Of a stretch of DNA of 36,152 nt, positions 1 to 36,152 are shown in pieces. The position numbers and the translations under genes were made by a program. Positions within the stretch are counted from its first letter, which is position 1. Each line of letters begins with the position of its first letter. The notes below the pieces were generated by a model. It made no database searches, was not told where the DNA came from, and saw only the letters and a list, made by a program, of their open reading frames with translations. This stretch comes from a virus (taxonomy: Duplodnaviria > Caudoviricetes): positions 1 through 36,152 of IMG/VR virus record IMGVR_UViG_3300032255_000010; one strand, written 5' to 3'.

Positions 1-150
1 AATTTGCACACAATCCGCCATCTCATCGCATACAACGGCATCATAATTATCGTGCGGGTCTCTTACTCCAAGGATGAAAAACGGTATAACAATGCCAATC
101 AACTCGGACTGGCCTTCGTCGGCACTTTGTTGTTTTGTTGTGTCATTCAT
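1..150 (-). CDS. Cassette-borne hypothetical protein, runs off the window start (MNDTTKQQSADEGQSELIGIVIP...)
   Basis: ATG at 150 preceded by AAGGA, inside attC 84-207; frame open to position 1; translated by hand. Confidence 0.65.
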   Translation of the reverse strand, partial: MNDTTKQQSADEGQSELIGIVIPFFILGVRDPHDNYDAVVCDEMADCVQI

Positions 151-207
151 GTTCGTTGTTCCTTTTAAGTTCATAGTTAGGCCATCCGGTTATTGGCGCA
201 GTTATGT
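84..207 (+). repeat. attC-like site (124 bp)
   Basis: GTATAAC...GTTATGT; left arm GCCAAT(C)AAC(T)CGGA(C)TGGCC pairs with GGCCATCCGGTTATTGGC leaving three extrahelical bases. Confidence 0.9.
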
Positions 208-321
208 TGCGTTATTCAGAATCATATTCACGGACGAAACACAAAGACGTTCTTGATTCTGCCAAATGTATTCCTTTTCAAAATCAGCAACAGCAGTCTT
301 GGCTTGTTGATATGTCAATAG

Positions 322-633
322 TTAGCGTCTGCCGTTCCATTTCGAGACAACATCTTCTTTTGAGTCGCCATCAATAGTGGCTCCACAACCATCTTTATGG
401 CTTTGGCAGACAAACTGATAGCACTGGTTCGGGTGTGTGTGGTTTCCTCCGTACACCCGGCAAAATTCGCCTTCACGCCAAGTTACCCCGCTCGGATATA
501 AGGCATCCTCTAAGTCCTCTTTAGTCATCTGTTTTCCGCAAAACGGGCAGGGCAACATAACAATGCCTGTCAACTCTGACTGGCCTAACGCGGTGTCTTC
601 TTTTAGTGCCGTGGCTTCGCTATTCTTTGTCAT
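322..633 (-). CDS. Lar-family restriction-alleviation-like Zn-ribbon protein
   Basis: LPCPFCG...C-x5-CGA...WNGRR pattern; GGAG and ATG lie inside attC 555-687. Confidence 0.7.
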   Translation of the reverse strand: MTKNSEATALKEDTALGQSELTGIVMLPCPFCGKQMTKEDLEDALYPSGVTWREGEFCRVYGGNHTHPNQCYQFVCQSHKDGCGATIDGDSKEDVVSKWNGRR

Positions 634-687
634 GTATTTTATCTCCGTGGTTTCTATTCGGCCATCCGGTTACCGGCAACGTTATAT
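555..687 (+). repeat. attC-like site (133 bp)
   Basis: ACATAAC...GTTATAT; arms similar to the 84-207 site; GCAACATAAC is the reverse complement of GTTATGTTGC at 201. Confidence 0.9.
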
Positions 688-894
688 TTTTCTAGCAATT
701 CGGCCTGATTCTACATCCCATGCCGCACCAGGATTTTCAACAAAGTGATTCAATGCCCACGCGCACAAGCAAGATGAACACAAGCATCTTAAATAACCTA
801 AATTTGAAGCATTAGCTCTCAATGCTTCAATTAAAACATCTTTATCTTCCAAGCCAGTGGCATCATCTGGCAGCATTTTAATTTCTAGGCTCAT
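682..894 (-). CDS. Cassette-borne hypothetical protein
   Basis: 70-aa ORF whose TAA stop is the core site at 681-687. Confidence 0.65.
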   Translation of the reverse strand: MSLEIKMLPDDATGLEDKDVLIEALRANASNLGYLRCLCSSCLCAWALNHFVENPGAAWDVESGRIARKI

Positions 895-907
895 ATCAAT
901 CTCAAAA

Positions 908-914
908 ATATAAC
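908..914 (+). repeat. Truncated attC (R'' box only) at the distal end of array A
   Basis: AAAAATATAAC is complementary to GTTATATTTTT at 681 and is followed by AATG like other sites; no convincing right arm. Confidence 0.6.
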
Positions 915-3236: not shown

Positions 3237-3249
3237 GTATATTATTTGC

Positions 3250-3279
3250 TTGATTTTTGCATTTATTTTGCACTATAAT
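3250..3279 (+). promoter_or_regulatory. Rightward sigma70-type promoter
   Basis: TTGATT-N18-TATAAT upstream of the HTH gene. Confidence 0.6.
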
Positions 3280-3302
3280 AAAGACATGGAAAGGAGATTT
3301 GC

Positions 3303-3494: not shown

Positions 3495-3517
3495 TATCGC
3501 TTGGCACAAGCATTGCA

Positions 3518-3604
3518 ATATAACGTCATTTATTAAACGGAGAGACACCGCAGTATAGAAAAACACCTAAGTATCTGAGTCCGATTTGAGGAATTTTGTT
3601 ATGT
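3518..3604 (-). repeat. attC-like site (87 bp, partly degenerate)
   Basis: Minus strand ACATAAC...GTTATAT; visibly homologous to 4118-4202. Confidence 0.75.
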
Positions 3605-3626
3605 GCAGCTAACTGAGTAAAACGGT

Positions 3627-3809
3627 ATGACATTTGATGATTGGTGGAAAAAAGAAAGTTGATGGGGTAGCGAGACTTTGGATGAATATCAGTTGGCAAA
3701 AGCAGCATGGAATAAGGCAATAGAGCAAGCCGCTAATGAAGTAAGGGCAAGCCATGGCCATTGTGAGACATGGCTTGAAGTTTCTGACATTGAAGAATTA
3801 AGCGCATAA
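3627..3809 (+). pseudogene. Cassette gene interrupted by in-frame TGA at 3660 (MTFDDWWKKES*WGSETLDEYQLAKAAWNKA...)
   Basis: ATG and core-site TAA are in frame across 61 codons with one internal stop. Confidence 0.6.
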
Positions 3810-3861
3810 CGTTTAATTTCAGCCGCGCGGTTTTTGCGTCGGCTGGAAATTATTGTTATGC
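3804..3861 (-). repeat. attC-like site (58 bp)
   Basis: Minus strand GCATAAC-AATAATTT(C)CAGCCG(A)CGC...GCGGCTGAAATTAAAC-GTTATGC. Confidence 0.92.
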
Positions 3862-3877
3862 GATTTTTGGATGATAT

Positions 3878-4123
3878 ATGATGACACAGGACGAAATACA
3901 AGAGATCAAAGACTTGATCAGTGATGAGTACGACAAATGGCGGCTCGACGCCGGTGACTGGATAGGATATGCCGAGGAATTGGTTGAAGAGGTGGAGCGG
4001 CTTAGAGATGAACTGGATACGATCCGGATGCACGCCAATCCAGACATTATTGATTCGGATTGTTTTGTCTGTATATCAGCAACAGAATTTGGTCAAGTCA
4101 TGAATAGGGTTTTTGGTGCATAA
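3878..4123 (+). CDS. Cassette-borne hypothetical protein
   Basis: 81-aa ORF filling the space between two attC sites; stop in the core site. Confidence 0.7.
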   Translation: MMTQDEIQEIKDLISDEYDKWRLDAGDWIGYAEELVEEVERLRDELDTIRMHANPDIIDSDCFVCISATEFGQVMNRVFGA

Positions 4124-4202
4124 CGTCAATTTTAAGCGGCGAACCACTGAAGTATAAAAGAACGCCGCGTTAACTGAGTCCGCTTGAAAATTTTTGTTAG
4201 GC
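4118..4202 (-). repeat. attC-like site (85 bp)
   Basis: Minus strand GCCTAAC-AAAAATTTT(C)AAGCGG(A)C...GCCGCTTAAAATTGAC-GTTATGC. Confidence 0.92.
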
Positions 4203-4225
4203 GGGCTACGAAGTGAGGAAACACG

Positions 4226-4417
4226 ATGGATTGGACGGATAAAACTTTTTGTAATCACGGGATATCTTTTTCAAATGAATGCGAGAGATGCGAAATAGTT
4301 GGGCTTGAAGAAAGCCTTAAATGGATGAAGCGGAAAGTTTCCCGCGATGAGAAGCGATTAGCTGAACTCGAAGACAAGCACACGCCTGAAATTGTTAAGA
4401 AGATGCGTAACGCCTAA
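4226..4417 (+). CDS. Cassette-borne hypothetical protein (C-x-H...C-x2-C)
   Basis: GAGGA RBS; stop in the core site. Confidence 0.7.
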   Translation: MDWTDKTFCNHGISFSNECERCEIVGLEESLKWMKRKVSRDEKRLAELEDKHTPEIVKKMRNA

Positions 4418-4472
4418 CCGCGCAAAACACCGAGCGAGCAAAGCGAGTCCGAGTGATTTTGCTTTGTTATGT
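4412..4472 (-). repeat. attC-like site (61 bp)
   Basis: Minus strand ACATAAC-AAAGCAAAA(T)CAC(T)CGG...TCGGTGTTTTGCGCG-GTTAGGC. Confidence 0.88.
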
Positions 4473-4498
4473 GGAAACTACAAATGATTAGTTGACAG

Positions 4499-4927
4499 TT
4501 GAAAAACGAAAATTACAAAGATTGGCCACTTTTTGATGATATGCCAAGCGGCTGGACGATAGACAAAACCTGCGGGTCTCCACTGGCTGGATATGTATTT
4601 ATCAGCGATTGGAGGAGCATTCTGCGCGGCGGGAAACGGGCACTGCTTAGGGTGAGAAAGCCGAAACAGCAGTTGTGCCTCGATGCTCAACCCGTTACCA
4701 AAATGGAATCAGCTGCTGACGAAACGGAAGCGGCAAAAATAGAGCAACCATACCCTGTGAGAACCGTAAACGAACTAGCTAGGGAGCGGTTTAAGCTGAG
4801 GCTGTTAAATGATATTCGTTGTGATTTGATGATCTGCGAATTAGAGGGATGGGGGAAAATGGAATACATAAACGAGATTAGGAGGCTGGTAAATGAAATT
4901 GGCAGCCGAGTTACGATAGACACATAA
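4499..4927 (+). CDS. Cassette-borne hypothetical protein
   Basis: 142-aa ORF ending in the core site of the attI-like element; start uncertain. Confidence 0.7.
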   Translation: MKNENYKDWPLFDDMPSGWTIDKTCGSPLAGYVFISDWRSILRGGKRALLRVRKPKQQLCLDAQPVTKMESAADETEAAKIEQPYPVRTVNELARERFKLRLLNDIRCDLMICELEGWGKMEYINEIRRLVNEIGSRVTIDT

Positions 4928-4978
4928 CACTGGGCTATACACACATGATAAGATAGGAGTAATAAAAACAATGGTTTA
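4922..4978 (-). other. attI-like recombination site heading array B
   Basis: Minus strand GTATAGC-CCAGT-GTTATGT (imperfect L box, 5-bp spacer, R box); 45/54 identical to 31009-31062. Confidence 0.75.
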
Positions 4979-6131: not shown

Positions 6132-6139
6132 GAGGAACT

Positions 6140-6328: not shown

Positions 6329-6482
6329 ACCAAAAAAACATCAGGCATTTTCAATATCTCGATTCAAGGATAGGGTGAAATCATATCCAGAATTAACTAT
6401 TGAAGACCGTAAAAAAGTTGAAAAGCGCAGGCGACTGGAAGAGATTATGGAAAATAAACAACAAGAAAACGACATCTGGTGA
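6321..6482 (+). CDS. Hypothetical protein (53 aa, MTKPKKHQAF...)
   Basis: Hand-translated; overlaps both neighbours, GTGA junction with ninG. Confidence 0.5.
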   Translation: MTKPKKHQAFSISRFKDRVKSYPELTIEDRKKVEKRRRLEEIMENKQQENDIW

Positions 6483-7096
6483 ATGAAAAAACCTGCAAAG
6501 CTTGTTTATCTGAGTTCAAACCTACCAGGTCGTTTCAGAAAGTGTGCTCACCTAAATGCGCGATTAAATTAGTGAATGCTAATAAAGAAGAGAAAAAGGC
6601 AAAGGCGTGGCGTTTAGAGAAGAAAATAAGAAAAGAAAAGCTGAAAAGCAAAAGCGAGTGGGTAAAAGAGGCAGAATATGCCTTCAGACGGTATATAAGG
6701 GCGCGTGACAGGCTTTTTTACGCAAAGCAAGGCAAACCTCATGAATGTATATCTTGTGGCACTACAAGCCCTCACATTCAATATGCCGCTGGACACTACA
6801 AAACAAAAGGCGCCTATCCAGAGCTAAGGCTGGATGAGAGGAATTGTTATTTGCAATGTAACAAACGATGCAACATGGAGTTATCTGGAAATATCAACGG
6901 GACAAAAGATACCCATGGTTACAAAGAAGGCCTAAAGATGCGATTCGGTGATGAAGAAGGGGAAAAGATCATTGATTATCTTGAGTCCCACCATCCAGCT
7001 GAAAATTGGACTATAGACGATCTTTCAAGGATGAAATCTGAATTTAACAAAAAGGCAAATGATATCGAAAAACAACTGTCTGATATACTTACATAA
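6479..7096 (+). CDS. ninG: NinG/Rap-family recombination endonuclease
   Basis: CKAC...QKVCSPKCA, YIRARD, CISCG, AGHY, N-x3-QC-x3-CN motifs. Confidence 0.9.
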   Translation: MNEKTCKACLSEFKPTRSFQKVCSPKCAIKLVNANKEEKKAKAWRLEKKIRKEKLKSKSEWVKEAEYAFRRYIRARDRLFYAKQGKPHECISCGTTSPHIQYAAGHYKTKGAYPELRLDERNCYLQCNKRCNMELSGNINGTKDTHGYKEGLKMRFGDEEGEKIIDYLESHHPAENWTIDDLSRMKSEFNKKANDIEKQLSDILT

Positions 7097-8574: not shown

Positions 8575-9828
8575 ATGGGTGCTGCGCATCCTGCTTTTGA
8601 TAGGTTATTTTTAGCCCCGGAGCTGTTACGGCCGGGGGTTAAGCCTATCAGTCCTGTCGAGATTGATAGAAGCAATAAGCTAGGCAGTACTATCAGTTAC
8701 TATTTACCATTAAATGGAAGTGGTCTTGAGATTGTAACTGGGAGACGTCTGACCGTTGGCGCTGGAGGCTCCTATGTTACAGATAGCAATGGTCTATCTT
8801 TACGTGGGTCAGGTACTGCGGCCTGCGCATCTATTCCGCTCGATCTTTCTTCCTACACTAGTTGTACGGTCTCATTCTGGATGTACTGGGACGCATACGC
8901 TAATAATGATGATCTAGCGTTGGAGTATGGCGAAAATTTTTTAACTAATTCAGGTTTTTTAATAGACCCAAATTCAGGTTATCCATCTAGCGGTTTTTTT
9001 CAGGCAGGTGTTGGCAGCCCGGGAAAGGCAAATAATCAATACTGGACAAGACCAACATCTGGCGAATGGCATCATTATGCGCTCACATTCGATAGAGCTG
9101 TTGGGACATCTCAATCAACTAATCTATACGTTGATGGTGTTTTTAAAACAAAATCTGGGGTAGCTGGATATCAATCTGATGTAACAAATAATTTCGGCAA
9201 TAATTATCTGTATATATTCTCACGCAATAATACGTCATTGTTTGGCGCTGGAAAAATGTTTGGGCTGACAATACGTGGCCAGCACATAATGACAGCCGAT
9301 GAGGTATTTTATGAATTTATCGACCCATACCAGATATTAAAACCTGCCGGTACGATAGCATTGCCGATTGCTGCGGGTGGCGGCTCATCCGCGCTAACCG
9401 GTACAGTCACCGCCTCAATCACTGAATCAGATATTGTCACTGGCGGTAAGACTATAATTTTAACATTGACAGGGGATACATGGGTGGCTGCTGGAGCGAC
9501 TTTCGATGCTCAAAGACAGAATATCATTGACGGATTGGATTCAGCACAGGCAGAAGCGACAGGATGGGATGCAGTTGTTAAAGCAGGGCTTACCCCATCA
9601 GATGTAGTCAGGACATCAGATACTGTCTGTACAATCACACTACCTGCGTTAGCCACGTATGACATAACAGCTCAAGAGACGATAACGGCTACAATACCAG
9701 CAGCGGTATTAACTGGTGCTAGTCCGATTGTTGCAGCACCTACGTTTACGGTTGATTATACAGCAGGTGGTTTTATGCCACATTGGGGCAGAGTCTCACA
9801 GCAAAGCAGAATTTTAGGAGCAATGTAG
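8575..9828 (+). CDS. LamG/concanavalin A-like domain protein, putative virion fibre or decoration
   Basis: TVSFWMY...GEWHHYALTFD...LYVDG signature; Thr/Ala-rich C-terminal domain. Confidence 0.75.
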   Translation: MGAAHPAFDRLFLAPELLRPGVKPISPVEIDRSNKLGSTISYYLPLNGSGLEIVTGRRLTVGAGGSYVTDSNGLSLRGSGTAACASIPLDLSSYTSCTVSFWMYWDAYANNDDLALEYGENFLTNSGFLIDPNSGYPSSGFFQAGVGSPGKANNQYWTRPTSGEWHHYALTFDRAVGTSQSTNLYVDGVFKTKSGVAGYQSDVTNNFGNNYLYIFSRNNTSLFGAGKMFGLTIRGQHIMTADEVFYEFIDPYQILKPAGTIALPIAAGGGSSALTGTVTASITESDIVTGGKTIILTLTGDTWVAAGATFDAQRQNIIDGLDSAQAEATGWDAVVKAGLTPSDVVRTSDTVCTITLPALATYDITAQETITATIPAAVLTGASPIVAAPTFTVDYTAGGFMPHWGRVSQQSRILGAM

Positions 9829-19245: not shown

Positions 19246-20016
19246 ATGACAAAGAAATTAGGCAAAAAGCGGAAAGAAAAGAGACAAGTGGTTCCTGCTA
19301 GCTGGGATGTGTATATCGCAACCCCAGCTTACGACGGCAAAGTAGATTGTGACTATTCCCAATCGTTAGCTGAATCAGCTTTTTGTTCACCGTTGTACCA
19401 GGTCAAAATGACTGCAGGAGTTATGGGAAACGGCGCGTTTATTGACTTGGCAAGAAATATTTTTGTAAAGATTTTTCTTGAAGACTTTCCAGAAGCTACG
19501 CATTTATTCTTTATAGATGCGGATCTCAAGTTCCCACCCAATGCGTTTATAGGACTGATTAGGTCGGGCAAGCCAATTTGTGCTGGCGTTTATCCGCGCA
19601 GACAATCACCACCTGACTATCCAGCCAAGTGGACACCTAACCCAGAGGTTGGCGGGTTATGGATAGAGGACGATTGGTTGATGTGCGACAGAGTACCTAC
19701 TGGCTTTCTGTGTATAACAAGAGAGGTTTTGGAGGAAATGTCGAAAGATGCAATACAGATGAATATTCATGGTCAGGAAGGCAAGGTTCCTCAGTTATTT
19801 TATACAAAGCTTGACGAAGAAGGCCGCTTTGTTGGTGAGGATTACTGTTTCTGTGATGACTATATAAAGAAATACGAGAAGCCTATCCCGGTTTGGCCTG
19901 ATATTGACTTTGTCCATGGGGGATATAAAGGTAACTACAGCAAATGGCTTAGCGAACAAATCGAAGCAGAGGAAAATAGAGTAGTCGAAATCAATCAAGA
20001 CACGAGTGCTGCATAA
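19246..20016 (+). CDS. GT-A fold (family 2-like) glycosyltransferase
   Basis: IATPAY, ARN, THLFFIDADL (DxD), TGFLCI, GEDYCFC. Confidence 0.8.
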   Translation: MTKKLGKKRKEKRQVVPASWDVYIATPAYDGKVDCDYSQSLAESAFCSPLYQVKMTAGVMGNGAFIDLARNIFVKIFLEDFPEATHLFFIDADLKFPPNAFIGLIRSGKPICAGVYPRRQSPPDYPAKWTPNPEVGGLWIEDDWLMCDRVPTGFLCITREVLEEMSKDAIQMNIHGQEGKVPQLFYTKLDEEGRFVGEDYCFCDDYIKKYEKPIPVWPDIDFVHGGYKGNYSKWLSEQIEAEENRVVEINQDTSAA

Positions 20017-20528
20017 TGGAATTGCTTATAGGGTGCGGAAACAACTTAAAGAAAAAGGTAACTTTCAATGAGATACCTTTAGAGTGGTCTGGAGAATTGA
20101 TTACACTTGACAACGACCCTACTGTTGATTGTGATGTACGGCATGACTTGAACCAGATTCCTTACCCGTTTGATGATGATATGTTTGACGAGATTCATGC
20201 CTATGAGGTTCTTGAGCATTGTGGTAGACAAGGAGATTGGAGGTTTTTCTTCGATCAATTCAGCGAATTTCACAGGATTTTAAAACCAGGTGGTTTTTTT
20301 ATAGCAACCTGCCCGATGTGGGACTCACAGTGGGCGTGGGGTGACCCAGGTCATACAAGGTTGATATGTGATGGATCGTTGACATTCTTATCACAGAAAG
20401 AATATGAGAGACAGGTAGGCGTTACAGCGATGACCGATTACCGGGGGTGGTATAAGGCAGACTTTGACCTGTTCGCTAAAGACGAAACTGATGACACGTT
20501 TGGTTTTGTATTGAGGGCTGTTAAATGA
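20016..20528 (+). CDS. Class I SAM-dependent methyltransferase-like protein
   Basis: LLIGCG, PFDDDMFDEI...VLEH, HRILKPGG, DPGH. Confidence 0.85.
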   Translation: MELLIGCGNNLKKKVTFNEIPLEWSGELITLDNDPTVDCDVRHDLNQIPYPFDDDMFDEIHAYEVLEHCGRQGDWRFFFDQFSEFHRILKPGGFFIATCPMWDSQWAWGDPGHTRLICDGSLTFLSQKEYERQVGVTAMTDYRGWYKADFDLFAKDETDDTFGFVLRAVK

Positions 20529-22706: not shown

Positions 22707-24337
22707 GTACATTACGAACAAGGGCAGCAAAAGGGAGTGAACTTACACACGCCGAGCTTGATGCTAATTTCAAACGAATTGTATCCGCAAAGACATCTGC
22801 GTATTCTTGTTTAATTAGTGACAATAGGAATTGGATTGTAGGTAATCATGCAACAACCCCATTTGTTATCACACTTGGCGATGCAGCGACAATGGCGGCG
22901 TCTGAAACAGGAGATTATGAGGTCACAATACATAACGTTGGGGCAGCGGTCGTTACCGTATCCCGTGCTGGAACTGACACCATCGACGGCGCGGCCACGA
23001 GTATTGCTCTCAACCAGTACGAATCAGTCACGCTAAAGGTTAATGCCACAAATAATGGTTATGAATCAATCGCTAGAGGACTTGGCGGACTAACCTCAAC
23101 TGTTGCTGAACTTAATATACTTGATGGAGTTACAGCTACGACATCCGAATTAAACTACGTTGACGGGGTAACAAGCTCTATTCAGACGCAAATCGACGGT
23201 GCCGTGAAAATTGCAGGGGCACAGACAATTACTGGCGCGAAGACGTTTACTAACGCGGTTACTGTTGAAGGAGACGGTCCGCTTATAAAACTTAGTGATA
23301 CAACTGCCGCCGCTGATGATTTTTGGGTTCATGCAAACTCAGACATATTCTACGTCTTAACAGACAGGAATGATGATGGAGCTTGGGAGACGCCGCATCC
23401 TTTGGAATTAAATAACACTACGTCAGTCGGATCATTATACGGCAGTCCGATTATAACATCAGCGTCTATCGGCTCGCAGACGGCTGGTGCTATAACCAGT
23501 CAGGGCACACTAGCAACGATGAATGCTGTGGGTCAGAATGAGTTGAAAACGTCAAACGCTGGTGAAGTATCTACGACGAGCACAAATGGTGCGACTTCTA
23601 TTTTACCTGGAGGAGCCTATGGATTCTACCCTAGACTCAGGTCGAGTTCGTCATCTGGAACTGGTTATTGGGGTAGTAATGCTGTGGCGGATACAAATTA
23701 CGTGGCATATGGTTTCGGCACTAGTTATGTTACGAGCATTCGTATTTATACAAGTAGTGGTAGTACTGCATACGCACAACAAACCTATGTGACTGCATCA
23801 CCTCCATACGATCTTGGTGACGGTGAGGCTCCATTTTTTATATTTGCAAATGTGGACTCACAGGGCAATATCGTTAGTGTATATTCTGCTGATACCCCTC
23901 CATGGATTTATAACGGGCCAACAAAAGTTACTGCTGATCGTCATGCTAAGGACGGTAAGCAATATATCAAACATAAGAATTTCTCTATGCCTGCACCTAT
24001 CAAGTCCAATTCATCAATGGCGCAAAAGGTAGCTTACAAAAAAGCTGTACTCGAAGCAAAACGCTCAGCGGTTGAGGAAGAAATAGAACTTACTCCTTTA
24101 ATGAAAAATGCGGACATGGATCTAATCCCACACCCGTTTGAAGCAAGTCCGGATTTTACACCAATTTTACTTGACCCAATGTCAAAAACCACTATTGACT
24201 TGATGGAATTGTGTGATAATGGTAATGGGGAAAGTGTTAACGAGATCATTCATGATAACTATATCAATGTTGGCAACACACCACTAGCTAGAAGTGGCCC
24301 AGCCGGACTAATGATTGTAGATGCGAAGTGGAAATAA
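22703..24337 (+). CDS. Tail fibre/receptor-binding protein
   Basis: KGSELTHAELDANF anchor, ELNILDGVT/ELNYVDGVT repeats, QTITGAKTF. Confidence 0.75.
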   Translation: MSTLRTRAAKGSELTHAELDANFKRIVSAKTSAYSCLISDNRNWIVGNHATTPFVITLGDAATMAASETGDYEVTIHNVGAAVVTVSRAGTDTIDGAATSIALNQYESVTLKVNATNNGYESIARGLGGLTSTVAELNILDGVTATTSELNYVDGVTSSIQTQIDGAVKIAGAQTITGAKTFTNAVTVEGDGPLIKLSDTTAAADDFWVHANSDIFYVLTDRNDDGAWETPHPLELNNTTSVGSLYGSPIITSASIGSQTAGAITSQGTLATMNAVGQNELKTSNAGEVSTTSTNGATSILPGGAYGFYPRLRSSSSSGTGYWGSNAVADTNYVAYGFGTSYVTSIRIYTSSGSTAYAQQTYVTASPPYDLGDGEAPFFIFANVDSQGNIVSVYSADTPPWIYNGPTKVTADRHAKDGKQYIKHKNFSMPAPIKSNSSMAQKVAYKKAVLEAKRSAVEEEIELTPLMKNADMDLIPHPFEASPDFTPILLDPMSKTTIDLMELCDNGNGESVNEIIHDNYINVGNTPLARSGPAGLMIVDAKWK

Positions 24338-24819
24338 TGGATAACAAATCAGTAACGCTAAAAAACTCAGGAATAGAATATAACATTGAGAAATATTCAT
24401 ATATTGCAGATGAGCTAAATAGCCTTGCTGAGAAGCATTACTATGAAGTTGAAGACGGTCGGATGCCGTTCAAGATTAACAAAGATGCTTACATTGAAAT
24501 TGACAGGAACGATGGTCTTTTATTAATAACTGCTAGGGATAACGGAGAGCTTATAGGGTATATACTTAATTTTATATCAAATAGTTTGCATAACGCTGAT
24601 TCATTGACATCAACTAACGATGCTATATATGTGAAGCCTGGATATAGAGGGATGGGCATATTTAAGCAACTTTTTGAAAGAATGGAGGATGAATTAAAGA
24701 TATCTGGAGTCGAGTACGTTGTTATGACAATCAAGAAGCAATTTGATATAGGTTTATACCTTGAAGAAAAAGGGTTTACTGAAATTGAACATAATTATGA
24801 GAAGTATCTAGGAGAATAA
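24337..24819 (+). CDS. GNAT-family acetyltransferase-like protein
   Basis: IYVKPGYRGMG motif A; sits before the ejection genes as in many podoviruses. Confidence 0.8.
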   Translation: MDNKSVTLKNSGIEYNIEKYSYIADELNSLAEKHYYEVEDGRMPFKINKDAYIEIDRNDGLLLITARDNGELIGYILNFISNSLHNADSLTSTNDAIYVKPGYRGMGIFKQLFERMEDELKISGVEYVVMTIKKQFDIGLYLEEKGFTEIEHNYEKYLGE

Positions 24820-30710: not shown

Positions 30711-31016
30711 TTATTCATCAAACCGCTTAAACCTTGGTAATGACTTCCTGATGCTGTTCATTAAAAATGTTATCCCGTGAATCCCAATCGGCTCATCGTT
30801 GCAATAAATGCTGTAGTTATCAATTCTATTTCCTTCAAGACACTCAAATATTGCGACTTCTTTTGTGTGCCTGCGTTCTATTGTGATTTTGATGTAAGGA
30901 TCAATATCTACAAAGTCAGTATGCTGATCCTTTTCAGCGAGTCTTTTTCTTTCTTTTGCGGCGTTTGCTTGTAATGACCACAGTTTTCGTGCTTTTTTAT
31001 TTGCTCTATAAGTCAT
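30711..31016 (-). CDS. Hypothetical protein starting inside the attI-like element (MTYRANKK...)
   Basis: AGGGAG RBS and ATG at 31016. Confidence 0.6.
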   Translation of the reverse strand: MTYRANKKARKLWSLQANAAKERKRLAEKDQHTDFVDIDPYIKITIERRHTKEVAIFECLEGNRIDNYSIYCNDEPIGIHGITFLMNSIRKSLPRFKRFDE

Positions 31017-31065
31017 TGTTTTTACGCTCCCTACCTTATCAGGTGTGTATAGCCCAGTGTTAGGT
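31009..31065 (+). other. attI-like recombination site heading array A
   Basis: GTATAGC-CCAGT-GTTAGGT; inverted copy of 4925-4978. Confidence 0.75.
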
Positions 31066-31083
31066 GACAACGGGGGTTATTAA

Positions 31084-31548
31084 ATGATTGAACATTTGCC
31101 ATTAGCTTTATCATCTCTTAGTACGGCTCTTGATATTGGAAAGAGCTTGGTAGGTATCCGCGATACTGCAAAACTTCAAGACGAGATTGTGAAATTCAAC
31201 AGCATCATAATCGGTGCGCAATCCGAAATAATGGCGTCTCAAAATGAACAAGCGTCTATGGTTAGAAAAATAGGAGAGCTTGAAAAAGAATGTATGCGCC
31301 TTAGTGATTGGGAAGCTGAAAGAAAAAGATACGCGAGAAAGGAAGTCGCTACTGGTGTTTTTGTATACATAGAAAATGACTATGTGGGCAAATTTGAAAA
31401 CGCGCATAAATATTGCTGCAATTGTCTCGATAATTACAAGAAGTCCACACTTCAGCAATTCAATATTACAGAAGGTCGGAAAATTTGGCTTTCGTGTCAT
31501 AACAAATGTCCTGATTTAATATTTCGCCACTACAATGATGTCACCTAA
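31084..31548 (+). CDS. Canonically oriented cassette gene: coiled-coil plus Zn-ribbon hypothetical protein
   Basis: Bounded by GTTAGGTGACA and TGTCACCTAAC; stop in R''; CCNC...CHNKC. Confidence 0.8.
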   Translation: MIEHLPLALSSLSTALDIGKSLVGIRDTAKLQDEIVKFNSIIIGAQSEIMASQNEQASMVRKIGELEKECMRLSDWEAERKRYARKEVATGVFVYIENDYVGKFENAHKYCCNCLDNYKKSTLQQFNITEGRKIWLSCHNKCPDLIFRHYNDVT

Positions 31549-31653
31549 CAAAAGCGGTCAAGAAGGACAGTCCTACGCGGCGTTCGTTTGTGCTGAAAAA
31601 CCTAGCACAAGCCTCTCACCGCTACGGCATGCCTCTTACCGCTGGCGTTATAC
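31543..31653 (+). repeat. attC-like site (111 bp)
   Basis: ACCTAAC-AAAAGCGGT(C)AAGA...TCTTACCGCTGGC-GTTATAC. Confidence 0.9.
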
Positions 31654-32190
31654 CGCACTGCCAAGCTCGGCGGTACATTCAACCTCGTTACCCCATACGT
31701 CCCAGCCTTCGTGAGGATCACGGCAGAATAACTCTACTCTTGGTCTATCTCCGCTCACCTCAACAATCATCTCTCTAAACATATTTGGCTTTTCCGAATG
31801 CTTAAGCCGCTTATGCTCAAAAGCAGTTCTATCAATCCTTTTCTCGGCCTTAAGTGTGCCTCGGCGACAAAACAGTAAATGCTCGGTAGTTTGCACATAT
31901 GTTCCACCGATACCTATTCCGTGAGGTGGCTTCACCCATGTCAACATACAGCTTGGCTTAAAGCCCCACGCCTTAGCAACTTCGTAGCTTTCAGCTATGT
32001 ATTTATTTATCACCCACAGGTAGAGGTGTGCGTTTTTGTCCGCTATCGCCTTTACTGGCAGCGCCTTAATTTCGTCAATGCTCATTGTCGGGTAGGGCAG
32101 TGGCTTCGATGGCCCGTTGCTATTCCAATCTGGTCCGCGCTTAACGTCCCAAGGCGGGTCGGCGTAAATCACTTGGTATTTCTTTGTCAT
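31648..32190 (-). CDS. MT-A70-family adenine methyltransferase
   Basis: YQVIYADPPW, YPTMS, LYLW, TEHLL, HSEKP, RVELFCR...GWDVWGNE; CAGGAG RBS. Confidence 0.92.
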   Translation of the reverse strand: MTKKYQVIYADPPWDVKRGPDWNSNGPSKPLPYPTMSIDEIKALPVKAIADKNAHLYLWVINKYIAESYEVAKAWGFKPSCMLTWVKPPHGIGIGGTYVQTTEHLLFCRRGTLKAEKRIDRTAFEHKRLKHSEKPNMFREMIVEVSGDRPRVELFCRDPHEGWDVWGNEVECTAELGSAV

Positions 32191-32215
32191 AAATTTTAAC
32201 TCCTGTGTATGCGCG

Positions 32216-32294
32216 GTATAACAAGGCAAATTAACAGCGACATTCACCGCGTCGCTTCGCTCCTTGTTCATGCGCGTTATTTGCGATGTTATGC
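32216..32294 (+). repeat. attC-like site (79 bp)
   Basis: GTATAAC-AAGGCAAAT(T)AAC(A)GCG...CGCGTTATTTGCGAT-GTTATGC. Confidence 0.9.
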
Positions 32295-32561
32295 GTCATT
32301 CTCAGCCAGCCAATCAATGCACTTTTGGCGGAATTTCCCCGCAATCTCTAAAGCTTTATCTTTTGTGGTCCATCCTGAAATTCCCTCCCAGCCAACGGTT
32401 TGCCCGTTTACTGTCGGGCACCAATAATTTATTGGCCGCCCATGTGGGTTTTGTTCACTGTCGCTCATGTCTTCAGGCCACGTTCCGGCTTGGTTCCACA
32501 ACATTTCCTGCTTCACTCCAATTTTACCGCTTGCCAGACCTGCAATTTGTTGTCTATCCAT
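32289..32561 (-). CDS. Cassette-borne hypothetical protein
   Basis: GGAGG RBS immediately after attC; stop in the core site. Confidence 0.7.
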   Translation of the reverse strand: MDRQQIAGLASGKIGVKQEMLWNQAGTWPEDMSDSEQNPHGRPINYWCPTVNGQTVGWEGISGWTTKDKALEIAGKFRQKCIDWLAENDA

Positions 32562-32574
32562 TATCAATCCTCCC

Positions 32575-32649
32575 GCATAACAATGCGCTTAAGTTCGCTT
32601 CACTTCGTTCCGCCGGACGGCTTCGCCACCGCTTAGCTTGGCGTTAGGT
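32575..32649 (+). repeat. attC-like site (75 bp)
   Basis: GCATAAC-AATGCGCTTAAG...CTTAGCTTGGC-GTTAGGT. Confidence 0.88.
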
Positions 32650-32799
32650 GGACTTAATGTCCGAGTGTATCCAGCAAAGCTTTCCTAAAATTGCCCACGC
32701 TATACCGTTGGTTAAGCTCCGCTCCTCTATCCCAATTCCTAGAGTTCTGGCAATAGCAAATCCTAGGAAGCCCCAGCCCATTAGTTCATTTGCGCTCAT
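32644..32799 (-). CDS. Small hydrophobic protein, second gene of a two-gene cassette
   Basis: ATGA overlap with the upstream gene; stop in the core site. Confidence 0.5.
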   Translation of the reverse strand: MSANELMGWGFLGFAIARTLGIGIEERSLTNGIAWAILGKLCWIHSDIKST

Positions 32800-33056
32800 C
32801 TCCATGGCCAAATCATAGCGAGCCGATAGAATCGATGTTTCATAAGCCAGTAAGTTATCGGTCCGCATTCAATCCAATCAAAGTTTGGCGTCGCTTCAAT
32901 TATCCGATCAAGGTCTTCTTGCTTTGTGCATTTAACGCTGGCTGTGCATCCGTTCCAATCCGTATAAACAGCATAAAAGCGTGGAGTAAAAAGCCACCTA
33001 ACAACAGGCTCTAAGGGACCACTGGCCGCGACGTTCGTTGCATTCTGCTTGTTCAT
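32796..33056 (-). CDS. Cassette-borne hypothetical protein starting inside attC
   Basis: ATG in the loop of attC 32996-33118. Confidence 0.65.
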   Translation of the reverse strand: MNKQNATNVAASGPLEPVVRWLFTPRFYAVYTDWNGCTASVKCTKQEDLDRIIEATPNFDWIECGPITYWLMKHRFYRLAMIWPWR

Positions 33057-33118
33057 AGTCTCAATACTCTTCGTTTTAATTCAGCGTGGCCAGTGGCCCC
33101 TAAGCCTTACCGTTATAC
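32996..33118 (+). repeat. attC-like site (123 bp)
   Basis: ACCTAAC-AACAGGCTCTAAGGGACCACTGGCC...GGCCAGTGGCCCCTAAGCCTTACC-GTTATAC. Confidence 0.88.
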
Positions 33119-33424
33119 ATCTAATTCTGTTACAGTCTTTCTGGCTCTCGCGCCAGGTTTAGGGTAGTCATAATCATCGTTATCGGCAAAATCAGTCATA
33201 AACTCACCTGCAGGGTTATCGGGTAAAAATGCAATAGCGTGGTAGTGTTCTGGGTCTGCGTAAAACCACACGGTATTAACAAGTTTGTTTAAGTAGATTA
33301 CTATTTCGTCGGGCGTTAGCGGCTTCCCATGCTTTAATATTGCCGGACCATTAGCCGTAACACATTGAGAGAAAACACTATAGTCATGTATAACAAGTGC
33401 ATTAACATCGTTCGTTTCACTCAC
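33113..33424 (-). CDS. Cassette-borne hypothetical protein starting inside attC
   Basis: AAGGAGGT SD and GTG within attC 33388-33463; stop in the core site. Confidence 0.7.
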   Translation of the reverse strand: MSETNDVNALVIHDYSVFSQCVTANGPAILKHGKPLTPDEIVIYLNKLVNTVWFYADPEHYHAIAFLPDNPAGEFMTDFADNDDYDYPKPGARARKTVTELDV

Positions 33425-33463
33425 TGCGACCTCCTTCGTCGGCGCGTTATGCAGGCGTTATGT
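33388..33463 (+). repeat. attC-like site (76 bp)
   Basis: GTATAAC-AAGTGCAT(T)AAC...GTTATGCAGGC-GTTATGT. Confidence 0.88.
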
Positions 33464-34111
33464 TGCACTAATACGCTCTTGTGCAATCTTAAAGTATTCT
33501 TCGTCTAGCTCTATACCGATAAATTTGCGGTTTAAGTTTTTACATGCAACGCCTGTTGAACCGCTGCCCATAAACGGGTCTAAAATTATCCCGTCCTTAT
33601 TAGATAGTCCGCTAATCAATGTACTTAATAAATCAACGGGCTTTTCAGCTCCGTGGTGCTCTTTTTTTAATGGGGCTTTTATTATCGTTGGAATATGGGT
33701 TAGTTTTTCTTTATTCAGCTTTAAACTGTCTCTATTTGCGTAAAAAATAATCTCATGCTGCTTTCGAAAAGGGTTTCCCATTCCTATTCTGCCCTTATCC
33801 CATACCACTATATTTTTTTGCTTCCATTCATAAAATAAGCCCATTAACACAGCGCTATAAACATCATCACAAAACACAAGAATAGGCGCATTTGGCTTTA
33901 ATAAGCGTCCCCACTCTTTCTTTATTGCTGAAAAATAAAACTCCTGTATAGCTAAATCAGAAAGCCGGTTTACAACTTTTCGCCCGAATGCGTGGACGGT
34001 TGGGCTTGTGTAAGGCGGGTCGGTTAAAATCATATCAACCGAACCATCTGGTATTTCTTTCATCATCTCAAGGCAATCGCCTTGCATCAGTGTAATCATA
34101 GTGGTTTCCAT
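33458..34111 (-). CDS. N6-adenine/N4-cytosine DNA methyltransferase (beta class)
   Basis: GDCLE, TDPPY, H.AEKP, LDPFMGSGSTG, FIGIEL. Confidence 0.93.
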   Translation of the reverse strand: METTMITLMQGDCLEMMKEIPDGSVDMILTDPPYTSPTVHAFGRKVVNRLSDLAIQEFYFSAIKKEWGRLLKPNAPILVFCDDVYSAVLMGLFYEWKQKNIVVWDKGRIGMGNPFRKQHEIIFYANRDSLKLNKEKLTHIPTIIKAPLKKEHHGAEKPVDLLSTLISGLSNKDGIILDPFMGSGSTGVACKNLNRKFIGIELDEEYFKIAQERISAT

Positions 34112-34128
34112 AGTTCAGTGTAGGTGCA

Positions 34129-34188
34129 GCCTAACAATGGCATTAACGCGGACAACAAAAAGCGTTGCCTGTTATGCGGGCGTTATGC
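34129..34188 (+). repeat. attC-like site (60 bp)
   Basis: GCCTAAC-AATGGCAT(T)AACGCGGACAAC...GTTGCCTGTTATGCGGGC-GTTATGC. Confidence 0.88.
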
Positions 34189-34593
34189 GTCAATTTCAGC
34201 TATCTGTTCTAACGCATTCCTAATGTTCAAGGCTGTGCCAAACAAGTGGTTATTTCCGTCCGGCGCACCATCGTAGTTGTCATGCCAAAAATCCCAGTCG
34301 TATGCACTTCTTGGCATGGGTTTTGGGTTGTACTCAATATGCCACCCGTCCGGGGCTAGACCATCAATAAACGAAGTCAGTACATTTATCCTGCCTTTGG
34401 CGGCAACTAGCGATTCTATGGAGGCAATAGCAGCGTCAATATCAAGCCCTAAGCTTTTCGGTTCTGGCTGCTCACCATCTCCACCCCTACGCCATTCGTT
34501 GTAGCGTTTTAAACGCATAACAAGGCAATTTAACTCGGACCCAACTACCGCAGTGGTCGCTTCAAGTTTTATGGTTTCTGATAAGTTCATCAT
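34183..34593 (-). CDS. Cassette-borne hypothetical protein starting inside attC
   Basis: AGGA and ATG in the loop of attC 34515-34647; stop in the core site. Confidence 0.7.
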   Translation of the reverse strand: MMNLSETIKLEATTAVVGSELNCLVMRLKRYNEWRRGGDGEQPEPKSLGLDIDAAIASIESLVAAKGRINVLTSFIDGLAPDGWHIEYNPKPMPRSAYDWDFWHDNYDGAPDGNNHLFGTALNIRNALEQIAEIDA

Positions 34594-34647
34594 TCGCTTA
34601 GTCCTGTGGTTTTGTTCCCGTTGGTCCGGTTAATTGCAACGTTATGT
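34515..34647 (+). repeat. attC-like site (133 bp)
   Basis: GCATAAC-AAGGCAATT(T)AAC(T)CGGAC(C)CAAC...GTTGGTCCGGTTAATTGCAAC-GTTATGT. Confidence 0.9.
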
Positions 34648-34656
34648 GCCTAGGTG

Positions 34657-34911
34657 CTAATCATCTAGCGATAGCATCGACAGCACCATTTTTAAAGCCT
34701 TGCCAGCGCCTGGCGTTTTCATGTCCTCTGCCATTTTCAGCGTTAGAATTATTTTAAAAAGTGCGTCGGCAGGTTTTGGCCAGTTTCCAGTTCGCTCCCA
34801 CCGGCCCCATGTGTCGCTGGCGTTTTGTCCTGTCTGTCCAGCAAACAGCTCACCGGCCTCACGTTGCGTGAGCCCCATCGTCTCACGCACTTCTATTGCT
34901 TTATTTCTCAT
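34657..34911 (-). CDS. XRE-family HTH regulator
   Basis: EVRETMGLTQREAGELF...TWGRWERTG. Confidence 0.8.
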   Translation of the reverse strand: MRNKAIEVRETMGLTQREAGELFAGQTGQNASDTWGRWERTGNWPKPADALFKIILTLKMAEDMKTPGAGKALKMVLSMLSLDD

Positions 34912-35155
34912 ACGACCCGATTTTATTTTTATTATCAACAGACCCGTTATTAATTATGCTCATTACGTTTTCTGGAGCAATGATGCGCGATTCGTTGCCT
35001 CCAAATTTTGCTTGATACTGCACTGCATAAGCTGCTGCATTCCATGGGTCTTCACCTAGGGACTTATTTCTTGCGATTATTTTTTTGCCACTGCTTGCTG
35101 TTATCTCGTAGCCGCCGCCTTGCCGTCTGTTGTATATCACTGAAATCATTATCAT
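34901..35155 (-). CDS. Hypothetical protein
   Basis: Coupled ORF in the 4-gene cassette. Confidence 0.6.
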   Translation of the reverse strand: MIMISVIYNRRQGGGYEITASSGKKIIARNKSLGEDPWNAAAYAVQYQAKFGGNESRIIAPENVMSIINNGSVDNKNKIGSYEK

Positions 35156-35484
35156 GATTGCGCCCTCTTTTCTAATGCTCTTGATATAAAGCTGTACCCG
35201 TTATTTTCATCAAAAAGAGAGTATACGAAATGAAGTTTTTTCCATCCGAGCGCTATATACAATTCTTGAATCTCTTTTATATCAGAAGCAAGGTTGCCAG
35301 TATTTTTATATATTTCATTCCCTGCATGATCTTTAATCGAGGCTACACTGCACTCGTAGCCATATTCGTTGCATTCGCCAATATTTACTTCTGCTGTTAA
35401 AACCGCTGACGGCATAATAAATTCGTGCATATCGCTTGGCGTACATGCGGGATAAATATTTATTGATACTGATTCAATTCTCAT
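35152..35484 (-). CDS. Hypothetical protein
   Basis: AGGA RBS; ATGA overlap downstream. Confidence 0.65.
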   Translation of the reverse strand: MRIESVSINIYPACTPSDMHEFIMPSAVLTAEVNIGECNEYGYECSVASIKDHAGNEIYKNTGNLASDIKEIQELYIALGWKKLHFVYSLFDENNGYSFISRALEKRAQS

Positions 35485-35496
35485 TTTGCTGTCCTG

Positions 35497-35859
35497 TTAT
35501 TTTTGTGAGTTGATGAAACGGCTAACTTCGCTGTTCAATGTGATTAGTTCAAGTAAGTCAGTTTTCTTTGTTTTTGCGCTTAGCGCTGCTTCAGCTTTTG
35601 CTATGTAAGCCTTTGCTGTTGAAAGATCGCTTACTTCTGCACGTTCAACATTGATTTTTTGACTAGCAACTAAGCGAGCGACTTTAGATTTCAGCGCGTC
35701 TAGCTTCATTCCAGCATCTGCATGCTTCGCAACTTTTTTTACTGTTACGAACAGAGCGTTATAACCGGCTTTAGCAGTTGCAAGCTCAGCGTCAGACATA
35801 AGGCCGATGTGTTGATCTAGGAAATCTTCGCAGTATTCGTTGAAAGTAAGCTTGCTCAT
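35497..35859 (-). CDS. Hypothetical protein
   Basis: AAGGAG RBS; first gene after the cassette promoter. Confidence 0.75.
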   Translation of the reverse strand: MSKLTFNEYCEDFLDQHIGLMSDAELATAKAGYNALFVTVKKVAKHADAGMKLDALKSKVARLVASQKINVERAEVSDLSTAKAYIAKAEAALSAKTKKTDLLELITLNSEVSRFINSQK

Positions 35860-35909
35860 TTTCTTTCTCCTTGCTTGGCTTCTGGTTTATTCCGTCTGCC
35901 TATGATTTA

Positions 35910-35938
35910 AATATACACGACACAGTGTCGTATTGCAA
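35910..35938 (-). promoter_or_regulatory. sigma70 promoter with palindromic operator in the spacer
   Basis: TTGCAA-N17-TATATT; ACGACAC-A-GTGTCGT at 35917-35931. Confidence 0.8.
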
Positions 35939-35973
35939 GGGCTTTTTTAATCATTAGCAAAAATAATCACGGC

Positions 35974-36033
35974 ACATAACAAACGCATACAGCGGACTCA
36001 GCTACGCTACGCCGTTGATGCGCAACGTTAGAT
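35974..36033 (+). repeat. attC-like site (60 bp)
   Basis: ACATAAC-AAACGCATACAGCGG...CCGTTGATGCGCAAC-GTTAGAT; GGCACATAAC matches GTTATGTGCC at 34641. Confidence 0.9.
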
Positions 36034-36037
36034 TGCT

Positions 36038-36152
36038 TATCGGTGTCCCCACTGATATCCGCAATCGCCGCATATTTCTAGTGTTGTATCTGGCATGGCT
36101 CCATTCGTTTCCCAAAATGCCGTCTTCCAGTCTTCGCTTTCACATTCCGGGC
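36038..36152 (-). CDS. 3' end of a Zn-ribbon protein gene (...PECESEDWK...CGDCGYQWGHR), cut by the window end
   Basis: Hand-translated; stops just before the core site. Confidence 0.55.

Follow-up and report, generated by a model that had tools for sequence, protein, structure and literature searches.

Integron-type cassette arrays headed by an attI-type site in an uncultured P22-like phage

Integrons are bacterial devices for stockpiling and reshuffling genes, and bacterial cassettes are mostly sense-oriented. In lambdoid phages, the ends of the early operons are variable accessory regions that carry small ORFans and anti-restriction cargo. Clusters of attC sites without an integrase (CALINs) have already been published for phages (Qi 2023, PMC9892861), with two to four predicted sites each according to the Figure 2 legend and Table S1 of that paper. 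The phage described here is uncultured and P22-like, and it holds its small accessory genes, anti-restriction DNA methylases included, as integron-style cassettes between folded attC sites; compared with the small attC clusters known from a few phages, its arrays are far richer. The window denotes the whole 36,152-nt stretch of DNA that was analysed, and the positions of its features are collected in Table 1.

Table 1. Elements of the two cassette arrays and of their attI-type heads in the window.
Feature	Position	Strand	Content or remark
P0001, 101 aa	30711..31016	-	conserved neighbour of the attI-type site
attI-type site, array A	31014..31065	+	small palindrome and ATA-rich box, then CAGT|GTTA; crossover G 31059
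Cassette 1	31060..31647	+	only sense-oriented ORF (31084-31548, phrog_1244); attC A1
Cassette 2	31648..32288	+	MT-A70 DNA methyltransferase (minus strand, 31648-32190/32271); attC A2
Cassettes 3 and 4	32289..33112	+	small minus-strand ORFs 32289-32567, 32644-32868, 32796-33056; attC A3, A4
Cassette 5	33113..33457	+	minus-strand ORF 33113-33424; attC A5
Cassette 6	33458..34182	+	N6_N4 DNA methyltransferase (33458-34111, minus strand); attC A6
Cassette 7	from 34183	+	ORF 34183-34593; attC A7
Cassette 8	to 36033	+	four minus-strand ORFs (34657-35859), own promoter-like site (35938->35910); attC A8
Array A, distal end	84..914	+	A9, Lar-like restriction-alleviation ORF 322-633 (-), A10, ORF 682-894 (-), lone R''
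Array B	3518..4973	-	top strand is the minus strand; four plus-strand ORFs between attC sites
attI-type copy, array B	4921-4973	-	crossover G 4928; of P0001, only 5 codons from the start remain
attC A1	31543-31653	+	R''-to-R' span
attC A2	32216-32294	+	R''-to-R' span; 64 bits with model R1
attC A3	32575-32649	+	R''-to-R' span
attC A4	32996-33118	+	R''-to-R' span
attC A5	33388-33463	+	R''-to-R' span
attC A6	34129-34188	+	R''-to-R' span
attC A7	34515-34647	+	R''-to-R' span
attC A8	35974-36033	+	R''-to-R' span
attC A9	84-207	+	distal end of array A
attC A10	555-687	+	distal end of array A
Lone R'' (half site)	908-914	+	terminal element of array A
attC B1	4472->4412	-	array B
attC B2	4202->4118	-	array B
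attC B3	3861->3804	-	array B
attC B4	3604->3518	-	array B

The first-pass annotation of the window had described eight palindromes of 60-133 bp at 31009-36152, together with two further complete sites and a half site at 84-914. All eight were located there, each site being taken to run from its 7-nt R'' through its 7-nt R', and the distal elements are present as A9, A10 and the lone R''. The proposal that these are attC-type sites of an integron is supported by their architecture, orientation and covariation. Every site in the window follows the pattern YTAAC-AAN-L''...L'-NNC-GTTA, with TAACAA and GTTA invariant in 14 of 14, the spacers AAN and NNC unpaired and extra bases on the left arm. The bottom-strand DNA folds into an R box, an internal loop of 2-3 nt and an L box, with the bulges on the '' arm, which is the 3' arm of the bottom strand; the bulged bases of A1 are G and T. 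When the 14 sites were aligned, 81.7% of cells paired, versus 25-44% with the partner slid by 1-3 columns, compensatory changes were present in 10 of 18 pairs, and the covariation score was matched by none of 500 shuffles; for the L-box pairs (n=14), 75.7% were paired, with compensatory changes in 10. The sites form groups of 8, 2 and 4, spaced 0.3-1.4 kb and without intI, and are thus CALINs as defined by at least two clustered attC sites. Their lengths lie within the expected ~55-140 bp, and the central part is variable (in run X2, the A7 arms enclose a different, short loop); A1-type arms occur at a depth of 352-6638 in a microbial-mat run. A search of the phage attC sites against Rfam gave no match.

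A covariance model (R1) was built from the 14 window sites alone. Applied to the 36-kb window, R1 recovered all 14 on the expected strands, the sole extra match being a weak reverse one (E 0.96) overlapping A6, and it gave two weak matches in 606,370 bases of related bacterial prophage DNA. The same model found five sites upstream of intI in a Methylophagaceae MAG contig (L121) and one upstream of intI in a second MAG (L120). On 29 further IntI loci it produced 16 matches in 13 loci, all 16 upstream of intI and on the opposite strand, which is the canonical orientation. The aadA7 attC, as printed in Table S3 of PMC9892861, agrees with this orientation rule.

The start of each cassette had been reported as complementary to the R'' of its own attC rather than to the adjoining R', and this had been taken as the footprint expected from recombination at G/TT. 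The complementarity was borne out over the 6 nt beyond the TAAC/GTTA core, where own pairs in the window scored 6, 6, 4, 5, 5, 4, 5, 6, 6 and 6 of 6, versus 1, 3, 3, 1, 1, 3, 3, 2 and 3 for same-site pairs. At other loci, own complementarity averaged 4.24/6 (n=38) versus 2.41/6 for same-site pairs (n=49; p=9e-9), and these values, together with the window scores, support the footprint. The R' of A8 is not complementary to the R'' of A9, indicating that the two ends of the record are not simply contiguous.

Gene content also changes exactly at G/TT in relatives, a check that the first-pass annotation had proposed, and in independent metagenomes; the metagenomic breakpoints come from assembled contigs rather than reads. 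The window and an otherwise unrelated phage contig (G001) share 95% nucleotide identity over the P0001 gene and the attI-type site, ending at 31063. Eighteen pairs of loci share at least 90% identity in the 100 nt preceding the junction; 12 of these pairs fall to 20-44% identity directly after GTTA, and the remaining 6 are the same phage. In independent runs, homology to the window ends at 31058-31063, 31650, 32291/2, 33111 and 33457-33463, each at most 6 nt from G/TT. A contig from run X4 joins the attI-type site (31058) directly to 33457, the R' of A5, so that cassette 6 adjoins attI, and three independent runs contain the cassette 5 unit (33111-33463), flanked left and right by other neighbours. 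One shared block, attC A2 (32218-32291), begins on the left at R'' rather than at an R', which may reflect attC-family likeness or another kind of recombination.

The attI-type sites of arrays A and B share 85% identity. Beside the former lies P0001, whose start codon is 46 nt from the G/TT crossover. P0001 had no Pfam, NCBIfam or PHROG match and no homologue in 50,697 GenBank phage records, and its predicted structure (pLDDT 72; one helix, a four-stranded sheet and one helix) had no match in the PDB; the family comprises 20 clusters and 26 representatives, the latter all of ~100 aa. Upstream of every P0001 homologue the attI-type site (~50 nt) is conserved, its terminal GTTA always equally far from the start codon, and sequence divergence at these loci begins directly after this GTTA. 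In 38 loci with a P0001 homologue, R1 gave 61 matches, every one of them on the strand opposite the gene and upstream of it. All 27 related loci from metagenomes and viruses whose upstream flank measures at least 600 nt have an R1 match, with the attI-type site heading the array. In G006, which is complete with terminal repeats, two inverted attI-type copies head two arrays, as in the window. The proximal ~15 nt and the upstream palindrome of the phage site resemble attI regions beside real intI genes; the likeness to the flanks of candidate-order intI genes is limited to the ~15 nt next to GTT, and a 34-nt weight matrix of the phage attI reached at most 9.5 bits near those genes, versus 25-47 bits for most phage sites. 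Judged by sequence, the conserved site is an attI-type platform heading each array, and its strict linkage to P0001 may leave room for a phage-encoded factor. The first-pass annotation had mentioned neither the attI-type site with its neighbour gene, nor the inverted array B, nor the ORFs antisense to the attC top strand.

Of the 16 window cassettes, 15 have such antisense ORFs, as do 38 of 52 segments elsewhere. Bottom-strand ORFs stop at the TAA of R' at 62 of 88 sites, versus 4 and 16 in the other two frames; the ORF finds its own stop codon there because the cassette-initial TTA is TAA on the other strand. The methyltransferase of cassette 2 (Pfam MT-A70, 1.5e-23), for example, ends in the TAA complementary to 31648-31650. 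That of cassette 6 belongs to Pfam N6_N4_Mtase (1.1e-33), and 74 of 80 cassette proteins of relatives are without a Pfam family. No promoter-like site at the attI side (the equivalent of Pc) was reported in the window. Since the phage ORFs are mostly antisense and bacterial cassettes mostly sense-oriented, free uptake from bacterial arrays is not what these arrays show.

As the first-pass annotation had stated, the window contains no tyrosine recombinase (no match to TIGR02249 or PF00589). PF00589 was likewise without a match in records G000, G001, G002, G003, G006, G007, G008 and G009, and the serine recombinase family PF00239 in all five records searched; three of the relatives' records in these recombinase searches are rated 90-100% complete, G006 being at 100%. 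IntI above the curated cut-off was present in three of the five bacterial genomes with the closest prophage relatives, and in 32 of 90 genomes of the order containing the closest prophage relative. As far as such genome comparisons can tell, a host IntI acting in trans, which the first-pass annotation had proposed, is likely the best reading for the integrase-less arrays.

We therefore propose, with a probability of roughly 0.6, that the window holds attC-separated integron-type cassette arrays with an attI-type head, in which cassettes are inserted, lost and reordered by a host-supplied IntI, the likely agent because the phage itself encodes no recombinase. A host IntI, probably SOS-induced, would act during infection or induction, recombining the phage attC sites, as folded bottom strands, with one another and with the phage attI. 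Given their bottom-strand location, the cassette ORFs would be transcribed from the divergent early promoters (~3200-3280), reading into the far array ends, and not from a promoter at the attI side. The two orphan DNA methyltransferases, the Lar-like protein and the numerous tiny ORFans that make up the cargo would then act as exchangeable counter-defence genes. A wider reading, possible and decidedly tentative, is that a widespread uncultured lineage of marine and microbial-mat phages would possess a dedicated integrase-less 'phage integron', whose platform of attI and P0001 would be present as inverted copies, at the ends of both early operons; this integron would hijack the SOS-induced IntI of the host and draw on a phage-specific pool of reverse-oriented counter-defence cassettes, with P0001 as a new attI-specific factor directing or licensing the reaction. 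If true, the phage integron would mirror, on the viral side, the role of bacterial integrons as defence-gene banks. If phages borrow the host integrase for attI-headed arrays, phage and bacterium would use the same machinery in their arms race, and their cassette pools could exchange members. Such arrays would in addition offer a ready list of small candidate counter-defence genes, and reverse gene orientation with a stop codon inside the recombination core would give a rule that might improve cassette prediction in viral metagenomes.

It is rather unlikely that the phage depends instead on an unrecognised recombination function of its own, with P0001 or another ORFan cutting and joining at attI and attC, or acting as the specificity factor required to recruit a general host enzyme (for example, XerCD) rather than IntI. 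In all features tested the sites are canonical IntI substrates, the 100-aa P0001 with its predicted helix, sheet and helix would be unlike any known site-specific recombinase, and in G003 an array starts beside another gene, SSB-like by its acidic tail, with no P0001 homologue there. This explanation draws its strength from the place of P0001, which is that of intI in an integron and lies at the fixed 46 nt from the crossover in all loci examined, from a family without a known domain or fold, and from the attI-type site, which holds a small palindrome with changing arms; moreover, the two attI copies of one genome are more alike than copies between genomes, as expected if they match a genome-specific protein. 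However, the P0001 gene points the same way as the cassette ORFs, and one provirus has it immediately ahead of xis-like and int genes; it may therefore be simply the last conserved gene of the early-left operon.

We consider it quite improbable that the arrays are an inactive relic, in which a piece of a bacterial chromosomal integron was gained once by illegitimate recombination and is now only inherited. Captured integron fragments are known in Vibrio anguillarum prophages and in a Shewanella prophage, as described in PMC9892861, and the last site of array A is a half site only. Against a relic, near-identical relatives have the same platform with different cassettes (the 12 of 18 pairs above), the junction of attI to cassette 6 is a variant from another sample, the rule of bottom-strand ORFs stopping at the R' TAA is phage-specific, and the stems are maintained through compensatory changes. 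The palindromes are intergenic, and several have a ribosome-binding site and a start codon in the loop, as could be expected of ordinary hairpins (terminators, REP-like repeats or translational couplers) that are not recombination sites; this we find hardly credible, given that terminator-like sites are not enriched (7 versus 5.9 expected), that R1, built from these palindromes, finds real attC sites beside intI in the correct orientation (16 of 16, plus those of L121 and L120), which already contradicts it, and that the breakpoints fall at G/TT.

Read as cassette arrays served by a host-supplied IntI, the locus can be set beside four known systems. It resembles the ends of lambdoid early operons in genome position, small ORFans and anti-restriction cargo, but its variability is structured by site-specific recombination sites and not by illegitimate or homologous exchange. 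With the sedentary chromosomal integrons of marine Gammaproteobacteria it shares the site architecture, the G/TT crossover and the footprint of cassette circles, and its array is placed in the same way relative to the gene next to attI. Unlike in those integrons, intI is absent, most cassette ORFs occupy the bottom strand and terminate at the R' TAA, transcription of the arrays is proposed to come from early promoters at the far end, and the attC sites are heterogeneous within an array. An integrase-less second array headed by an attI copy is also seen in the cryptic Shewanella prophage M16-3, whose CALIN has its own attI (PMC9892861); as that paper describes it, M16-3 also has a complete integron with an IntI and is thought defective, whereas the phage records that are rated 90-100% complete, G006 among them, are without IntI. 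The phage CALINs covered in the same paper likewise have attC sites between phage genes, no intI and orphan DNA methyltransferases among the cassettes, and the attC sites given there for Pseudoalteromonas phage PH101 look alike (ATAAC-AAG...GGAC...CGTTAT). In contrast to the CALINs as published there, the present phage has 14 sites and a half site in two inverted arrays, each with a conserved attI-type head, and in dozens of uncultured phage contigs this head is coupled to a small gene dedicated to it.

The eight imperfect palindromes that the first-pass annotation had reported in array A (sites A1-A8), together with the two complete sites and the half site that it had described at the start of the record (A9, A10 and a lone R''), proved to be real and correctly placed, and four further attC-type sites (B1-B4) were found in an inverted array, array B. 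The 14 complete sites share an invariant TAACAA left end and GTTA right end and an unpaired, asymmetric spacer (AAN on the left versus NNC on the right); the extra bases ascribed to the left arm are also present, the left arm exceeding the right by 1-2 bases in complete sites. A scan of the window for strict RYYYAAC...GTTRRRY sites recovered none of them because their cores read Y-TAAC/GTTA-Y. When folded with DNA parameters, most bottom strands formed an R box, an internal loop and a bulged L box ending in a variable tip, with the bulges on the 3' ('') arm. Covariation was assessed on a hand-drawn structure of 18 pairs, with slid partners and 500 shuffles as controls: paired cells amounted to 81.7% compared with 25-44% when the partner was slid, ten of the 18 pairs carried two-sided changes, and no shuffle reached the covariation score. 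The orientation rule, which puts the extra bases on the top strand's left arm, also fits the aadA7 attC given by Qi et al. 2023 (PMC9892861, Table S3).

Coordinates of the features discussed, in the window unless another locus is named
Feature	Position	Strand	Remark
A1-A8, array A	31009-36152		eight attC sites
Arms of A1	31545-31654		
A9, A10, lone R'', array A	84-914		
B1-B4, array B	3518-4472	minus (site top strand)	four attC-type sites
attI-type site, array A	31014-31066		53 nt; crossover G at 31059
attI-type copy, array B	4921-4973	inverted	
P0001	30711-31016	minus	
Gene-poor 500 nt	4975-5490		separates the array B attI copy from the replication gene; promoter-like sites on both strands; no Rfam match
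Cassette 5	33113-33457		carries A5
Cassette 6	33458-34182		N6_N4 DNA methyltransferase; carries A6
Cassette with four ORFs	34642-35980	minus (ORFs)	1.3 kb
Sigma70-like promoter of that cassette	35938-35910	minus	TTGCAA-17-TATATT, palindrome in the spacer
Cassette B4	3524-3809		coding sequence looks frameshifted near an A-run; frame from ATG 3628 has 11 codons to a stop, 43-aa frame from TTG 3678 reaches the R' TAA
Methyltransf_11 and GNAT acetyltransferase genes	20016-20525, 24328-24816		within the head/tail/ejection module, outside the attC arrays
Lectin-fold protein ORF	8575-9825		rejected as terminase; no match among GenBank phages
Gene beside array start, G003	L105 11995-12324		109 aa, acidic ...DDEIQF tail
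CTGT-N8-ACAG, bacterial genome G011	L120 2560-2600		LexA-type by reading; immediately precedes a genuine intI

A covariance model built from the 14 sites (R1) returned those sites from the window, each on its expected strand; the one further match, weak and in reverse, lay over A6 (E 0.96). In bacterial prophage loci carrying an early gene in common with this phage (606,370 bases), it gave two weak matches. At two MAG loci whose integrase genes scored 437 and 409 bits on TIGR02249, the integron integrase profile, R1 detected five sites beside the first intI (on a Methylophagaceae MAG contig) and one beside the second. Among 29 further IntI loci with just 1.5 kb of flank, 13 contained a total of 16 matches, every one of them upstream of intI and on the opposite strand. 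By this test the phage sites belong with bacterial attC sites, and their strand assignment is canonical. Cassette starts were also confirmed to be complementary to their own attC's R'' rather than to the adjoining R'. Scored over the six bases past the 4-nt core, complementarity in the window was 4-6 of 6 for a cassette start and its own R'' versus 1-3 of 6 for the two ends of one site, and in other loci the means were 4.24 (n=38) and 2.41 (n=49), respectively (Mann-Whitney p=9e-9). The R' of A8 mismatches the R'' of A9, indicating that at least one cassette boundary is absent between the two ends of the IMG/VR virus record, which makes up the whole window and is linear, 36,152 bp long and 97% complete according to CheckV.

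The sequence preceding the first G/TT of array A recurs, inverted and with 85% identity, before the first G/TT of array B. At array A this attI-type site runs into the start codon of P0001, a 101-aa gene on the other strand, and just five P0001 codons are left at the array B copy. The relative G001 shares the P0001 gene and the site with 95% nucleotide identity, the homology ending at 31063, and is otherwise unrelated to this phage save for one tail gene. P0001 homologues are present in 38 further loci, in which all 61 R1 matches lie upstream of the homologue on the opposite strand, with none elsewhere in 327,727 bases; by our own tally, a match occurs in 27 of 27 P0001 loci with at least 600 nt upstream and in none of the ten with less. 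Upstream of the homologues, in the 37 of 38 loci that were read, lies a common design, of which the doubtful L084 has no trace: the start codon is followed in turn by an AT-rich stretch, a small palindrome, an ATA-rich box, CAGT and GTTA; the distance from start codon to GTTA is fixed at ~46 nt, and the loci diverge right past GTTA. The arrangement is likewise double in the relative G006, a complete genome with terminal repeats: two near-identical inverted copies of the site each head an array.

Breaks of homology at G/TT, which the first-pass annotation had proposed to look for among relatives, were found: of 18 locus pairs with 90% identity or more across the 100 nt ahead of the junction, 12 drop to 20-44% over the following 60 nt, and the other six are same-phage duplicates. 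The indel that separates L086 from L088 proved to be an ordinary gene insertion lacking attC. One metagenome run probably represents the source sample. The other four runs, which come from three studies and cover two microbial-mat and two seawater samples, yielded assembled contigs that match the stretch in parts only, and conclusions from runs X2-X6 are confined to the covered parts of the window. In the other runs these parts are modules. The module of P0001 plus attI ends at 31058-31063 and is followed by differing sequence. Cassette 5 (33111-33463) recurs in three runs, and its neighbours differ on either side. One contig fuses 31058 to 33457 (four bases being ambiguous), so that the attI G/TT meets the A5 G/TT and the N6_N4 methylase cassette becomes the first in the array. 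Differing neighbours on both sides were also seen for A2, with R'' as the left boundary; this boundary, unfit for R' crossover, may reflect only likeness within an attC family. The A7 arms are also present with another, short loop. Contigs matching just the A1 arms in run X6, from a microbial mat, have depths of 352 to 6638, which suggests that an attC family is very abundant there, perhaps as a large chromosomal integron. Since the evidence consists of contigs and not reads, it establishes that variant forms exist and gives no frequencies.

Such rearranged forms speak against the proposal that the arrays are inert relics, which we regard as improbable. Nucleotide-level cassette sharing among 38 array loci was limited to short attC-sized matches and one 136-nt match, too little to place the crossover side. 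As the first-pass annotation had stated, no tyrosine recombinase was found in the window, and neither integron-type, tyrosine nor serine recombinases were detected there or in G001, G003, G006 and G007, G003 and G006 being rated 100% complete. Two relatives, G004 and a provirus, carry an ordinary phage integrase; in the provirus a DUF4224 gene comes after P0001, and then the integrase and host genes. A role of P0001 or another phage factor in recombination is unlikely. The constant position of P0001 at the attI-type site speaks for this alternative, and against it speaks the long array of G003, whose start adjoins a different gene rather than a P0001 homologue; the product of that gene may be SSB-like, judging by its acidic tail. 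A peptide-pattern search of bacterial genomes found no P0001. The protein belongs to a small family in which no known domain or fold was found: the ESM Atlas gave no match, the best PDB sequence hit had E 0.84, and Foldseek against the PDB returned nothing at E<=0.001.

We favour, with a probability of about 0.6, the action of a host IntI in trans on the arrays. IntI is encoded in three of the five bacterial genomes with the closest prophage relatives, and in 32 of the 90 genomes of the order to which the best of these belongs. One such intI has, as we read it, a LexA-type box in its promoter. The attI regions at these bacterial intI genes resemble the phage site in that a palindrome precedes some twelve ATA-rich bases and then GTT. 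A scan of 32 bacterial intI loci with the full phage attI weight matrix found no convincing match. In the bacterial genome G011, the attI region contains the palindrome GCGCATGCGC, which resembles the Shewanella-type attI quoted in PMC9892861.

The ORF lies on the bottom strand in 15 of the 16 window cassettes, the sole sense ORF being in the first cassette of array A, and the cassette genes are therefore co-directional with the phage early genes and P0001. Elsewhere, the longest open stretch is antisense in 38 of 52 inter-site segments, and at 62 of 88 sites a bottom-strand frame with 45 codons or more stops exactly at the TAA opposite the R' TTA, compared with 4 and 16 for the other two frames; the bacterial array read as a contrast has sense ORFs. 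Loops of long attC sites hold a ribosome-binding site and a start codon, and the Pfam match of the Lar-like protein starts at an ATG inside R''. The 1.3-kb cassette with its own promoter resembles a self-regulated module and not a promoterless one, and its ORFs had no family matches except a weak one to phrog_26475.

Window cassettes encode an MT-A70 methyltransferase, the N6_N4 DNA methyltransferase and the Lar-like restriction-alleviation protein. Among 80 cassette proteins from relatives, six had a Pfam family, the families being PAPS reductase, MT-A70, RNA ligase, deoxyribosyltransferase-like and DUF7352. This cargo would fit exchangeable counter-defence genes. Family scans identified a head and ejection module of P22-like type (portal, coat, scaffold, large terminase, ejection protein), a lysis cassette (endolysin, spanin) and lambdoid early genes (YqaJ exonuclease, NinG, replication initiator), and scans of the window found no tRNA gene and no Rfam match. 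The sole match in a search for close GenBank phage relatives was 77 nt of the methylase in a Vibrio phage; an early gene has 15 relatives in Pseudomonas, Klebsiella and other phages.

The general phenomenon is already known from Qi et al. 2023 (PMC9892861), whose screen of 10,705 phage genomes found a few captured integrons as well as 17 attC clusters without integrase (CALINs), each with 2-4 attC sites, and who showed recombination of five of six phage attC sites by IntI1. A full-text search, with subscription journals outside its scope, found only that paper on phage attC arrays, and no attI-plus-small-gene platform or reverse-oriented phage cassettes in print. The combination not found in print comprises the conserved platform, the paired inverted arrays, the array size, the reverse cassettes with a built-in stop and the breakpoints in natural populations. 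Unlike in classical integrons, the ORFs of the phage cassettes are mostly antisense, with their stop codon built into the R' TAA.
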